From positions 17,050,001 through 17,114,000 of the forward strand of contig OZ024756.1 in NCBI GenBank assembly GCA_964016885.1: a DNA stretch of 64,000 nt, read 5' to 3'. This document shows positions 1 through 36,351 of the stretch, one piece after another. The DNA comes from Eledone cirrhosa. Lineage: Eukaryota. Below the pieces are notes generated by a model, which did no database searches, was not told the DNA's origin, and worked only from the letters and a program-made list of their open reading frames with translations. Position numbers and translations under genes: made by a program. Position 1 is the first letter of the stretch. Each line of letters starts with the position of its first letter.

Positions 1-124
1 TTAAAGATGACTTGAACCAAAAACTGGTGGAAGGACCTGATGATGACAGAAATAGGTGTAGGTAGGCATTACATATGTACTGTCACCACTATATATATAT
101 ATATATATAGTTTTAATATAGATG

Positions 125-175
125 AGATTCTACAGGACTAGAACTGTTTCATTCTTTAGAAATCATCAGGAATCT
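125..175 (-). ncRNA. Type I hammerhead ribozyme (inverted copy of 217-267)
   Basis: Exact reverse complement of 217-267. Confidence 0.75.
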
Positions 176-216
176 GGGTATCAAAAAATAAGTATGGTAT
201 TTATTTTTTGATACCC

Positions 217-267
217 AGATTCCTGATGATTTCTAAAGAATGAAACAGTTCTAGTCCTGTAGAATCT
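217..267 (+). ncRNA. Type I hammerhead ribozyme
   Basis: Stem I AGAUUC/GAAUCU; core CUGAUGA; short stem II UUC/GAA; GAAA; stem III ACAG/CUGU with 8-nt loop; GUA cleavage triplet. Confidence 0.8.
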
Positions 268-407
268 CATCTATATTAAAACTTTTATACTCTGCAATGT
301 ATTGAGTACCTTACTTACTGTGGTTACCTCCGATTCAACCCGGAATAACATATATATATATATATATATATATATATATATATATATAGTGTCAGCACTG
401 TACATGT

Positions 408-739
408 ATATATATAAAAACTAAAGTGTCTGTATGCAGGCAATGTATTTCCACAGTTTCCATCTGATTTTGTTCAAATTCGATACTTAGGTAATTTAGC
501 TCATGGAGCATGTCAACAAATCTTACTCTTCCCTAAAATAGCAGAGTTCTGAGCCTATTTAAAGATGGCCATGTTGAGGAGTGAGGGGATCTTTCTTGGC
601 AGTGGTGAAGGTGTAGGACGAGAGAGAACGAGACAGACAGAGCATCTGTTGGAGTAGTAACCACAGCCATAGTACCTTAATTCAGTTATTCACTTCATCT
701 TATTAAGGTATGCCCAGCAATGACAGGCTCTTTTGCTAG
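408..739 (+). mobile_element. Non-autonomous Helitron-like element
   Basis: Starts ATATATAAAAACTAAAGTGTCTGTATG and ends with a GC-rich subterminal segment followed by CTAG|T, the usual Helitron 3' end. Confidence 0.45.
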
Positions 740-1285
740 TATATATATATTATATATAGACACCAACATAGTGTGAATTATAGTGGTGCCATAGAAGATG
801 AGTATGTTGTAGTTACAGATGGTTAAGTGTATGGTTTGAAGCAGGTGTGGATCTCAGACAAAGTTGACTCCTATCTCCTGATCTTTTCAACATCTTTCCC
901 CATCATATCTATGAGACACAGCTGAGATATACTGTCTTGACAGAGGTGTAGAGTTGGCTCCTCCCTTCCCCTTCCCCCATTATATCATTGTAATCTTTTT
1001 TTTCCTTTCTCCTAGTTTATGTGAAATATTTATGTAAATAAAATTTGTTTCTGTCTTGCTAAATATTTGTGAAGTAGAACAATGTCACAATTTGTGTTTG
1101 TATGCTGTGTAGCATCAAATAGATTAGATCTCACCAAGAAACATGATCTAAAACAGGTGAGATATCAAGCATTGACTTAACCCTTTAGCATTTACATTAC
1201 TCTAGATTTTCTATTGTATTTTCGGGGTAAAGGCTTTATCTCACATAATATTGAATCTATGAGATTTCGATATTATTTATTTTGA

Positions 1286-1473
1286 AGGCAGTGGATTGAC
1301 AGTTTTGGTAGAGGATCAGATGCCATGCTTTGCAGCATAGAGTTACGGCCCTTTGCGGTCTGAGTTAAAATCCCTCCGAGATTAACTTTGCCTTTCATCC
1401 TTACGGGGTCGATAAAATAAGGCACCAGTAATGCACTGGGGTAATTGCTGGCCTTGTGCCAAAAGTAGAATCA
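1286..1473 (+). mobile_element. tRNA-derived SINE family 1
   Basis: B-box-like GAGTTAAAATCC; body ACTTTGCCTTTCATCCTTACGGGGTCGATAAAATAA; TSD ATTATTTATTTTGA (1272-1285, 1474-1487). Confidence 0.85.
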
Positions 1474-1511
1474 ATTATTTATTTTGAGAACAATACCTTA
1501 ATATCAGTAAT

Positions 1512-1689
1512 TGTTTCTACTTTAGGCACAAGGCCAGCAATTACCCAGTGCATTACTGGTACTTTATTTTATCGACCCCGTAAGGATGAAAGGCAAAGTC
1601 AACCTCGGCGGGATTTGAACTCAGATTGTAAAGGGACGTAACTATGCTGGAAAGCATGGCGTCCGACCCTCTACCGATACTGCCAATCC
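1512..1689 (-). mobile_element. tRNA-derived SINE family 1
   Basis: Reverse-complement copy; TSD AATATCAGTAAT (1500-1511, 1690-1701). Confidence 0.85.
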
Positions 1690-33044: not shown

Positions 33045-33745
33045 GACAGTGGTGGAGGTGGTGGTGGGGTAGTGGTGGTGGGGGTAGTGGTGGTGGAGGT
33101 GGTGTGGTTGACGGTGGTGATAGTGGGGGTGGGGGGTGAAAGTGGTGGTAGTAGTGGTGGTGGTTACCATGGTGATGGTGGTAGTGGTATGGTGGTGGTA
33201 GAGGAGGTGGTGGTTGCGGTGGTGATGGTGGTAGTGGAGGGAGTGGTGATTGTGGTGGGGTAGTGGTGATAGTGGTTGCGGTGGTAATGGTGGTAGTGGT
33301 ATAGTGGAGGTGGTGGTGGTATTGGTGGTTGTGGTGGTGGTTTTGGTGGTGATGGAGGTAGTGATAATGGTGGTAGCTGTGGTACTGATGACGGTGGTGA
33401 TAGTGGTAGTGATGGCGGTGGTAGTGGAGGTGGCGGTACCGATGATAGTGGTGGTGGTGGTGAGGGTGGTGGTGATGAGAGTGTTGGTGCTAATGCTGGT
33501 GGTGGTATTGGTGGTGATGGTGGTGGCGGTATTGTTGATGGTGATGCTGATGATAGTGTGTCTATCTTTATTGAAACAAGTTGACGTATCGCTGTATGAA
33601 CCCAGCATGTTCGGATATTGTGTGTGTGTGTGTGTGTGTGTGTGTGTGTGTGTGTGTGTGTGTGTGTGTGTGTGTGTGTGTGTGTGTGTGTGTGTGTGTG
33701 TGTGTGCGCGCGTGTGTGTGTGTGTGTGTGTGTGTGTGTGTGTGT
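33045..33745. repeat. (GGT)n-like low complexity then (TG)n
   Basis: Direct reading. Confidence 0.9.
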
Positions 33746-34514
33746 GTTTACGTTTGTGTCTGTGTCTTATGTTCCGTAGTTTAGTGGCAAAGTGGTTCGG
33801 GTGGTGGGTTGAGGGGGTGTGCGGGTATGTGTGTCTGCGTCATTTGTCTTAAGTTCCATAATTTAGTGGTTAAGGGGTTCGGGTGTTGCGGTGAAAGCTC
33901 GACAAAGTGTGTGCGTGTGTGTGCGTGTGTGTGTATGAGCGTGAGTGTATATGTGTGTATATGTGCGTGTGTGTATGCAGTGGCGGACTGGCCAGGTTGC
34001 CCAATGGCAAGTGGGCCCCATGGGGCCTAAGGTAGCATTGCAGGGGCCCACTGTAGTATTTTGGGGTCCAATGCTTTGCTTTCAAAAAATACCTGAAGTC
34101 TAAGAGAAAGAATCAAATTTTCTTAAAAATAAATAAAACTATTAAGCAAAGTATTTGGTCAACCAACTCCCCAGGGAATTAATAGAAACCAAAATATATG
34201 ATAGTGTTAACAGCTGGAATCAGTAGTTGTACATTTTATTAAATTTGAAGCTTCGTGTATTCATCCATGCATGCAAACATACATATATAGACACACTCAA
34301 GTACACACACACACACACACATATATATATATTGAGTTAAGAAATTTGAGTTACAATTAAATAGCTTTTCCGAGCCGTACAATATAATTGAATAAACAAG
34401 AGAGATGAACACTAATATAAACATACATGGGTTCCGAATGACACGTGCGATAATTCATATCGTACATAATTCATTCTCTAATATTTTTAGAAGTGAAAGG
34501 ATCTCTAATTTCTC

Positions 34515-34596
34515 AACAACTACTGAGGAGCAGAGAAACGTGAGAACTTCACTTAATAAGTCGTTGCGAAACAGTCTCCAACACTGTCTAGTTGTT
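34515..34596 (+). ncRNA. Type I hammerhead ribozyme
   Basis: 8-bp stem I AACAACUA/UAGUUGUU; CUGAGGA; stem II GCA...UGC; GAAA; stem III ACAGU/ACUGU with 7-nt loop; GUC triplet; lies within fold-back insert 34332-34786 (arms 34382-34429/34738-34786). Confidence 0.85.
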
Positions 34597-34986
34597 ACCA
34601 GGCATTTTTGCCCAATATAGGTCTGTTATTTTTCTTAATTTTTCTTAATTTAATATTTAAAGTTAAGGATAACAAACTATATTGCTGTAGTTAGTATTTT
34701 TTCACCCTAGCAAATTTTAGTCCTTACGATTCGAACACATGTATGTTTATATTATTGTTCATCTCTCTTGTTTATTCAATTATATATATATATATATATA
34801 ATTTAATACAATAACAGAGATAGCCTTAAGCTAAACTCCGACTGGTAACCATCTCACTCAACAAACATTAGGTTATACGTTAGTATAAACCCAATTTAAG
34901 TGTTTGGGGTGCTAACTATAAGTATTTTGTGGAAAGCCAGTTGTATTATTTTATAAGATATAATTAAAGTTAAAATATATCTCTCT

Positions 34987-35111
34987 TTCCAAACAATTGT
35001 TTCATTATAAGTTTTCTACAAATTGGGAGAATGTTTCCAGTTTATGTAGAAGCCTAACATATATTCATGTAAGAATATATTTAGGTGGGCACTTATAAAT
35101 CTTCAGTGGAA
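34987..35111 (-). ncRNA. Type I hammerhead ribozyme with large stem II insertion
   Basis: Stem I UUCCA/UGGAA; CUGAAGA; stem II closed by UUAUAAGU/ACUUAUAA; GAAA; palindromic ACAAUUGU; GUU triplet; in (TA)n-flanked insert 34800-35203. Confidence 0.7.
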
Positions 35112-35449
35112 GCCCATTAAATTTTGATATAAGAAAAAATTTCTTACCGCAGTTAAAAATCGTGGCTGCTAAGTTGTTCCTTCACGCATCGAATGACCGC
35201 CAAATATATATATATATATATATATATATGTGTGTGTGTGTGTGTGTGTGTGTGTGTGTGTGTGTGTGTGTGTGTGTGTGTGTGTGTGTGTGTATCTTAC
35301 ATTGCCCATGGAGTACGCTGAGATATAACCGGTACTGGCATTGATAAATATGGTGGGTCCGTCAACTCCTTATTATATATATATATACTGTATATATATA
35401 TTGCACTTTCCTGTTGACAAGTGTTGTTAGGCCTCATATCATGTTACCT

Positions 35450-35519
35450 TATTTTATCTGATGAGAACACAACTTTTGTCCCAGGATGATGTTGTTTTCG
35501 AAATGCGCATAATAAAATA
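35450..35519 (+). ncRNA. Type I hammerhead ribozyme, relative of 4821-4891
   Basis: Same stems I and III; CUGAUGA; diverged but still paired stem II GAACACAAC/GUUGUUUUC. Confidence 0.8.
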
Positions 35520-35759
35520 TATGGAACTTCTTTAACCATCTTTTAATTTCTCTCTCTCTCTATATATATATATATAATATATATATATATATATAATACA
35601 TATATATATATACACACACATATATATATATATATATACTTACACATACACACGAACTACGGGCCAAATATTTTTTGGTATCAATGGGTTAAAGACATCT
35701 GTCAAATCAATTAGTGGTGAAGGTGGTGTGTGTGTGTGTGTGTGTGTGTGTGTATATAT

Positions 35760-36351
35760 TAGGTTATGCAAGAAATGCTTAGGGTTATCCTGAATGCAGT
35801 AATGGTTAATTACTACACTAGATAGAGTTGACGTACGGTGAAGGGTTACTCAACGAGTTATGGAAGAATAGTCAGAAAAATTCAGTTTTTTTATCCTTCT
35901 GTATTCCGGAGTGTAGATAAAGAATGAATAATTGTTTCTACTTTAGGCACAAGGCCAGCAATTACCCAGTGCATTACTGGTACTTTATTTTATCGACCCC
36001 GTAAGGATGAAAGGCAAAGTCAACCTCGGCTGGATTTGAACTCAGATCGTAAAGGGACGTAACTATGCTGGAAAGCATGGCGTCCGACCCTCCACCGATA
36101 CTGCCAATCCACCTCCCTTTAAAAAGAATGAATAATAACAGGTAGACATCATAAAAAGGTAATTTATTCCGAGTGCTTACAAATGTTTCAACAGCAGTTA
36201 TACAGCCTAGTTATGTTTCTGCAAACAAATAATTATTAATTAACAATTGCACATAGCATGACTAGGCTGTATAACTACTGTTGAAACATTTGTAAGCACT
36301 CGGAATAAATTACCTTTTTATGATGTCTACCTGTTATTATTCATTCTTTAT
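35760..36351 (-). mobile_element. Penelope-like terminus (fold-back) interrupted by a SINE
   Basis: Arms (35917..)36123-36215/36257-36351; only the GAAACATTTGTA half of a hammerhead; TA flanks. Confidence 0.65.
35933..36122 (-). mobile_element. tRNA-derived SINE family 1, full length
   Basis: A box TGGCAGTATCGG; B box GAGTTCAAATCC; TSD AAAGAATGAATAAT. Confidence 0.9.

Follow-up and report, generated by a model that had tools for sequence, protein, structure and literature searches.

Penelope-like elements (PLEs) that encode an endonuclease (EN) are recognized in the literature by inverted copies truncated at the 5′ end, by a tail on one side, and by hammerheads and insertion into (TA)n, and in the accessible text of Craig et al. 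2021 (PMC8557442), PLEs of the Hydra clade combine (TA)n targets and canonical hammerheads with the inverted 5′-truncated copy and the one-sided tail. For the Poseidon PLE of Anolis carolinensis (PAc), the available parts of Frangieh et al. 2024 (PMC11167929) describe the nicking and extension of both target strands and two internal starts of the reverse transcriptase (RT) that match the genomic tail, and a dimer was predicted; that work covers one element, whose open reading frame (ORF) contains the "AC-rich stem loop" in which a start lies, and whose tail is 30–40 bp. The inverted copy, the one-sided tail and the internal RT starts are therefore already published (Craig 2021; Frangieh 2024). 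The Penelope elements of Adineta vaga are similar in having an inverted pseudo-long terminal repeat and an optional tail reaching into the 5′ part of the element, and the portion of that study available to us explains the inversions by self-priming and names no boundary signal (PMC3846280). Here, we examined a window of 64,000 nt from Eledone cirrhosa (contig OZ024756.1, positions 17,050,001 to 17,114,000, forward strand), which contains eight (TA)n-flanked fold-back inserts. They are 3′ ends, joined head to head, of retroelements of this kind that bear hammerheads and target (TA)n, probably of the Hydra clade, and in six of them one arm end is marked by a bulged hairpin.

The inserts were located by self-alignment of the window and all lie between 110 and 36348. 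In each, one arm has an extra 50–157 nt, the tail, and the other passes directly into (TA)n. The arm end was taken by script as the final base of continuous identity between the arms, except at 5835, which was set by eye because an indel misregistered the script, and at 30391, which was read from the printed alignment. Because several nucleotides of TA microhomology occur at the arm ends (1–5 nt in the scripted rows, and more in the AT-rich insert at 4681), each end is a short interval and the gaps given are minimum values. An earlier note on this DNA had claimed that seven inverted arms stop 1–6 nt before a hairpin and then enter (TA)n; its coordinates proved right, and the arm-end observation in the window is real. 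The gap is 4 nt in insert 1 (110–349, plus strand; arm end 283, hairpin 288–308), 3 nt in insert 2 (4681–5020, plus; 4934, 4938–4964), 2 nt in insert 4 (19222–19364, minus; 19308, 19305–19284), 3 nt in insert 5 (29590–30075, minus; 29674, 29670–29637), 1 nt in insert 6 (30116–30476, plus; 30391, 30393–30414) and 3 nt in insert 7 (35762–36348, minus; 35917, with a long hairpin at 35913–35847). In insert 3 (5694–5983, minus; tail of approximately 140 nt), the gap from 5835 is 6 nt. The claim of a hairpin at all seven ends holds for the six with a full YACTC-helix-TH-GAGTR motif; the 5828 case is degenerate, with a 3′ half at 5744–5739 and an ambiguous 5′ half. Insert 8 (34333–34780, minus; arm end 34382, 50-nt tail), which the note had left uncounted, has a GCTC half-site (the 34376 case) approximately 5 nt past its arm end and no intact 3′ half. 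The full motif thus begins 1–4 nt past the arm end in six of the eight fold-backs, which represent five independent families, inserts 4 and 6 (hairpins 19305 and 30393) being 87% identical members of one family.

The strict form of the motif (YACTC, a helix of at least 3 bp, TH, GAGTR) has seven matches in the window, whereas 100 block shuffles gave 0.44 on average and 3 at most, although the motif was defined on these very inserts. The seventh match, at 6445 on the minus strand, belongs to a copy missed by the earlier note, which has a hairpin (6445–6410), a tail and (TA)n and is direct only, with no inverted arm (6352–6990, minus; 5′ limit approximate). In all hairpins from the window and from the second host described below, the bulge belongs to an R-U-H triplet, and the pair above this triplet is Y-R. 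This arrangement resembles stem I, the cleavage triplet and the base of stem III of a hammerhead without its catalytic core, and an ACTC/GAGT-type stem I occurs in the hammerheads of three other loci (L050, L067 and L098) and of two published Hydra elements. The motif may descend from a hammerhead stripped of its core, with stem I, the R-U-H triplet and the base of stem III retained.

The identification of the inserts as PLEs was supported by several features. All eight fold-backs are inverted 5′-truncated copies with a one-sided tail, and all are inserted into (TA)n, a trait of the Hydra clade. A motif scan detected type I hammerheads on the hairpin strand, upstream of the hairpin, in inserts 1, 2, 5, 6 and 8 and in a copy at 35402, and one was recognized by eye in the 6352 copy; the scan found none in inserts 3, 4 and 7, and Rfam reported no hammerhead family for the window. 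The canonical hammerheads together with the (TA)n targets indicate the Hydra clade (PMC8557442, in the text available). An ORF with a PLE RT and a GIY-YIG endonuclease was seen in related loci with the same hairpin, none of significance being present in the window itself. Two other assignments were rejected. The Naiad clade has an N-terminal EN and no canonical hammerhead, whereas canonical hammerhead motifs are present here; a miniature inverted-repeat transposable element has terminal inverted repeats that share one end position in the element, whereas these inserts have a 50–157-nt extension on one arm and variable inner turns.

Beyond the window, ends were surveyed in public reads for one family (that of insert 6) and in other hosts. 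The principal second host, G001, is, like G006 and G009, a genome bin filed as bacterial that carries animal DNA contigs. It came to light when bacterial genome bins were scanned for a hammerhead plus (TA)n, a pattern that does not include the hairpin; its loci were picked by hammerhead or ORF, and loci from hairpin patterns were joined later. Each G001 family has two classes of end. Among 21 short ends from eight families, 18 were placed by script 2–5 nt before the hairpin, and two more were placed by eye at 4 nt, after a substitution. This census left out six F14 rows, which were F14 itself and renewed matches to F4 copies, together with three seeds that had matched by chance; F15, F6b and W4 each repeat a family that had been counted. 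The Hydra-type ORF, the hammerhead and the hairpin share one sense in seven G001 families, and the F2 hammerhead is identical to that of Hydra-2_Amil (PMC8557442, from the consensus available). Of the protein traits of the Hydra clade (RWK, DKT and CxCx5C, with a C-terminal EN that lacks CCHH), RWK, DK[TS] and CxCx5C are present in 40/51, 50/51 and 49/51 full-length homologues of the G001 protein, respectively, and also occur in the G001 ORFs.

The G001 hairpin has GCTC/GAGC, a compensatory change relative to ACTC/GAGT, and the hairpin plus (TA)n pattern returned 112 rows in G001 (which overlap), compared with one for the reversed pattern. Across 18 families, with F17 (the reverse read of F10) left out of the pair counts, 94.4% of cells were paired versus 82.9 in shuffled alignments, and 21 changes affected both sides versus 8.1; none of 500 shuffles reached either value, whereas two of the five measures of the covariation tool were no higher than in the shuffles, and the shuffle control ignores relatedness. 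Hairpin 1 of G006 shows a further change at a pair that is invariant in the 18-family set. The notion that a short motif was picked post hoc by chance in AT-rich repeats gains something from the definition of the motif on these inserts and from its weak folding. Nevertheless, we regard it as having a practically negligible probability, given the seven matches against 0.44, the covariation, and the second-host census, which refutes it, the predicted ends having been found at loci picked without the hairpin.

The hairpin is also the most constant of the landmarks compared. Over 14 rows, the distance from the tail-less end to the hairpin had a standard deviation of 1.3 nt (range 1–5 nt); the corresponding values were 9.8 nt for the distance to the hammerhead cut and 26 nt for the length of the tail. 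This supports the hairpin as the landmark of this end. The hammerhead cut was ruled out as a ruler for the arm end, since its distance is 33–65 nt. The hairpin was also considered as a substrate of the element's own hammerhead and rejected, because by eye the stems mismatch and the cut would miss the arm end.

When public reads were mapped on window positions 30201–30476 at 80% likeness, loose ends at 30391 running into (TA)n appeared under two organism labels, in 6,420 and 7,624 raw restriction site-associated DNA (RAD) reads and, among contigs, in 54 and 3, and the X6 depth falls by approximately 6,500 at the 30391 step, equal to the number of loose reads. The further pre-hairpin ends among the rows listed, 30378 and 30385, look like subfamily variants, and the hairpin substitutions among those listed affect the loop (30401, 30402 and 30404) and the bulge (30409), with 34 weaker rows beyond them. 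The turn points vary among these reads, as do the spacers between arms in five window inserts (3, 47, 108, 107 and 41 nt). The force of this test is reduced because it covers the best 24 of 585 loose-end rows and because RAD reads differ from copy counts. A nearby feature, such as a UA-rich patch annealing to nicked (TA)n, might instead set the starts, with the hairpins having a role in the assembly of the ribonucleoprotein (RNP) or, in the 5′ untranslated region (UTR), in the control of translation. Most ends do show TA microhomology, and in two elements a second hairpin lies close to the ATG. However, the arms are rich in TA patches, and yet a single site accounts for the (TA)n loose ends among the rows listed; insert 2 skips TATATAT, a better patch located 13 nt upstream; and the gap is constant at 1–5 nt across the 14 rows; we thus consider this explanation quite improbable.

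Three elements keep sequence ahead of the ORF start, and each has a second hairpin. L334 (family F1, G001) and L356 (G006) carry two tandem hairpins ahead of the ATG, with hairpin 2 approximately 15–20 nt from it, and in L337 the end of an F4-type tail is followed by a hairpin and then the ORF. The long, tail-bearing ends lie 3 nt before hairpin 2 in all three F1 copies and 4, 4 and 5 nt before it in all three F4 copies, and the 3′ end in G006 is a long end 3 nt before hairpin 2. In these elements, with both ends under one rule, the tail is therefore the spacing between two hairpins. By eye, the published Hydra-1_Ajap consensus has the motif twice ahead of the ATG, two of six consensus sequences (Hydra-2_Amil and Hydra-2_Ajap) have it at the 3′ end, and Hydra-1_Crog and Hydra-1_Amil have variants (PMC8557442, among the sequences available). 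A two-hairpin pattern search of G001 returned L334 as the sole case. L334 (G001:C716) is a full-length copy whose 5′ end meets (TA)n exactly at hairpin 1, so that its direct repeat is the tail alone; this end would suit a cDNA that stopped where a second RT was engaged, or a circular template.

We consider it probable, on these grounds, that the inserts are 3′ ends of hammerhead-bearing, (TA)n-targeted PLEs whose shorter, tail-less arm stops 1–6 nt before the hairpin because a protein of the element binds the hairpin RNA and starts cDNA synthesis just 5′ of it. From sequence comparison we infer both the binding of the hairpin by the element protein, with its setting of priming, and the stoichiometry of RT units on the hairpins. 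In such a mechanism, the endonuclease would nick both (TA)n strands, and two RT units, one docked on each hairpin, would each prime one cDNA on nicked (TA)n, with the start a few bases to the 5′ side of its hairpin. The cDNA from hairpin 2 would copy hairpin 1 and the spacer, that is, the tail, and the cDNA from hairpin 1 would be made without these. Both would be truncated at variable 5′ points and then joined, giving a fold-back in which either arm may be the longer. Hairpin 2 would never be present in inserts, since it lies 3′ of both starts. The earlier note had proposed that one cDNA is set by the hairpin and that the other includes the tail; the two separately primed cDNAs and the tail-less end at the hairpin stand, but the proposal was incomplete, as the tail-bearing ends of related elements that keep their 5′ UTR also lie 3–5 nt before a hairpin, the second one.

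The arm lengths bear on how the two cDNAs arise. The tail-less arm is the longer in seven of ten asymmetric fold-backs (inserts 4, 6 and 8, L238, L240, L258 and L269) and the tail arm in three (inserts 2 and 5 and L273). The tail-less arm of insert 4 contains sense sequence that its tail arm lacks, and that of insert 6 spans the spacer and the entire hammerhead (core 30220, minus); the native sequence found upstream of 30308 places the spacer in this arm. Since the tail-less arm is often longer, self-copying of one cDNA cannot yield these lengths. Fold-back self-priming, in which the first cDNA folds and is copied back until the hairpin stops the copy in the manner of a telomerase boundary, has been proposed for related elements (PMC3846280, in the part available) and would account for the near-perfect palindromic turns of insert 1 and of two inserts at L265. 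As a general route it is already contradicted by the element sequence that the tail-less arm holds and the tail arm lacks in those seven of ten asymmetric fold-backs, and by same-site tail-less ends on long-ORF copies with no inverted partner in the locus; it also leaves hairpin 2 unexplained. We consider it very improbable, and it could hold for the symmetric cases alone.

Cutting rather than priming could also fix the ends, if the endonuclease, or an RNase, cut the intermediate in its single-stranded form a few bases before each hairpin, on its 5′ side, and ordinary priming at a 3′ end, or repair, followed. This predicts the same fixed ends, which lie in TA-rich sequence, the target of the enzyme; in the accessible texts, the tail has been ascribed to EN-mediated resolution (PMC8557442), and the Drosophila virilis EN requires the tail for recognition (PMC11167929). 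On the other hand, the same source describes RT starts internal to the RNA 3′ end that are unaffected by a 3′ extension (PMC11167929), and the four non-Watson-Crick pairs in the upper helix (positions 2–3) are G-U on the sense strand, with no A-C. Because the odd pairs are G-U and never A-C, there is a weak lean towards the hairpin acting as RNA rather than as cDNA. Cutting is thus unlikely, albeit with a real share of the probability, and priming next to an RNA hairpin remains our preferred explanation.

Several observations weigh against this explanation. The hairpin is weak, being part of the minimum-energy fold in its tail context for two of seven window copies; the tail-region folding z-scores range from 0.07 to −2.14; and inserts 3 and 8 retain the two-end shape with no intact motif. 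The arm ends lie in TA-rich patches, which could help to fix them, and the copy at 35402 ends early or is eroded. In G001, the remaining short end (L250) was not placed relative to the hairpin, and the invariance of CTC/GAG is circular, because CTC/GAG was built into the search patterns. The second hairpin is known from three elements, one of which was put in its family by a match of approximately 20 nt, and it was seen in related elements, outside the window's own families; L360 in G009 has a hairpin and a long 3′ extension in which no second hairpin was found. No such motif is evident by eye in the published octopus consensus Hydra-1_Obim (PMC8557442, in the sequence available). Finally, the window has no significant ORF. 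The best Hydra-profile match has E = 0.95 window-wide; it is a 26-aa stretch upstream of the 6352 hammerhead on the right strand, and its value is 3e−4 if just the 410 nt upstream are searched. Searches of the window and its decayed frames by tblastn, Pfam and two database searches were all negative; the decayed frames upstream of 6352, used as protein queries, returned three unrelated repeat proteins, no Pfam match and no homologue. Because no significant ORF is present, the clade of the window copies is drawn from shared RNA features.

PAc resembles the present elements in its AT-rich target, its two internal starts spaced by the tail, its upstream hammerhead and a start near a stem loop; the available parts of that paper describe no conserved or duplicated hairpin (PMC11167929). 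In the present elements, in contrast, the putative starts fall 5′ of the hairpin rather than inside it; this hairpin is bulged, conserved in sequence and located in the 5′ UTR, and the tails are 59–157 nt. The available text and supplement of Craig et al. 2021 contain neither "hairpin" nor "stem-loop" (PMC8557442). In L1 twin priming, each of the two target strands primes a cDNA, and the product is an inversion with a variable second priming site and non-overlapping arms; in the present inserts, both outer ends are fixed. The earlier suggestion of a telomerase-like template-positioning element survives as an analogy. Telomerase RNA also has an element adjoining the copied region that is read by a related RT, but, in the text available, its boundary element halts synthesis from a position 5′ of the template (PMC5855555), whereas on the sense strand of the hammerhead and ORF the hairpin is found 3′ of the copied region. 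We found no report of the hairpin rule or of the hairpin duplication in a literature survey that covered openly accessible text; PMC4209133, bioRxiv 10.64898/2026.07.22.740005 and PMC13282606, in the text available, have no bearing on the boundary.

If the hairpins tell the enzyme where to start, the rule would explain the long-known one-sided tail of PLEs; the in vitro study mapped two internal starts and, in the parts available, named no conserved signal for them (PMC11167929). A short motif from which both ends can be predicted in divergent families indicates exact mutations to make and a structural target in the PLE RNP, provides a means of finding element boundaries and ORF-less Hydra-type remnants, and might be used as a defined start signal in tools for RNA-templated DNA insertion. 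More tentatively, and with somewhat less than even confidence, we suggest that in Hydra-clade PLEs of at least four animal hosts, tandem covarying bulged hairpins dock a two-unit RT-endonuclease, each fixing a cDNA start 2–5 nt upstream so that the tail equals the hairpin spacing, and that the hairpin is a portable start signal able to program the start of a telomerase-related RT on any RNA.

G006 and G009 are the two further hosts with the hairpin motif. Six bins filed as bacteria (G001, G002, G003, G005, G006 and G009) have animal contigs bearing Penelope-like elements and microsatellites, G001 being heavily affected, and in five other contaminated genomes the hairpin pattern gave scattered matches, below or near the control. 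In another hammerhead class, the hairpin was missing in 11 of 11 copies; in a third, it occurred in one of 12 rows, beyond a (TA)n run in an adjoining insert. The hairpin plus (TA)n pattern matched four viral and 114 metagenome loci (12 of 64 parts scanned), and the upper helix reached at least 3 bp in two of these 118, both with no inverted arm; five of the 118 were hammerheads whose stem I matched the pattern, and the fold-back L050 has its short end elsewhere than at this motif. In viral contigs, the hammerhead plus (TA)n pattern gave 61 loci, none of which passed the stem filter, and no Hydra relative was found there. Rfam gave 119 weak matches on the window, all microsatellite-driven or sub-threshold, and none for the hairpin.

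The remaining features of the inserts are as follows. Hammerhead cores lie at 223 in insert 1 (and at 169 on the minus strand; tail-less arm 110–194, minus, and tail-bearing arm 198–349), at 4829 in insert 2, whose longer arm is the tail-bearing one, and at 29781 in insert 5, the tail-less arm of which has an internal deletion close to the turn. The insert 8 hammerhead, at 34523 on the plus strand, is within the longer, tail-less arm. The insert 7 hairpin has a 57-nt interior and does not adopt the drawn structure, and this insert is split at approximately 35933–36122 by a repeat resembling a short interspersed nuclear element (SINE), with a 14-nt duplication. In the 6352 copy, positions 6946–6869 may encode a decayed endonuclease C-terminus (a weak match), and the hammerhead recognized by eye has a long helix II (approximately 6611–6500). 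The copy at 35402–35560 (plus; hammerhead 35458) is an older, direct-only, tail-less member of the insert 2 family, with homology ending 15–19 nt short of the hairpin position at an end eroded by (CT)n/(TA)n. A tail-only fragment between (TA)n runs (3395–3456, plus) has a hairpin variant from approximately 9 nt in, and another, of the 6352 family (35294–35373, plus), starts inside the hairpin. At 30201–30360, the sequences on the upstream and downstream sides of the insert 6 hammerhead are complementary to each other, as an extended stem I; the junction of insert 4 (19306–19337) is within this segment, where the two cDNAs may have annealed.

Elsewhere in the window, CACTC and TT-GAGTG halves lie approximately 50 nt apart ahead of a (TA)n run at 17507–17575 and fall short of the strict motif, and a hammerhead-like motif with short stems occurs at 43915–43945 with no associated fold-back. 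A 71-nt inverted repeat around approximately 470 nt (61032–61646) has neither (TA)n flanks nor a hairpin. The SINE-like repeat is present at 1292–1690, 3725–3914 and 35933–36122, with one pair inverted and one copy within insert 7. Large GTG-rich and CAC-rich arrays face each other at 20383–26305, giving long low-complexity inverted matches.

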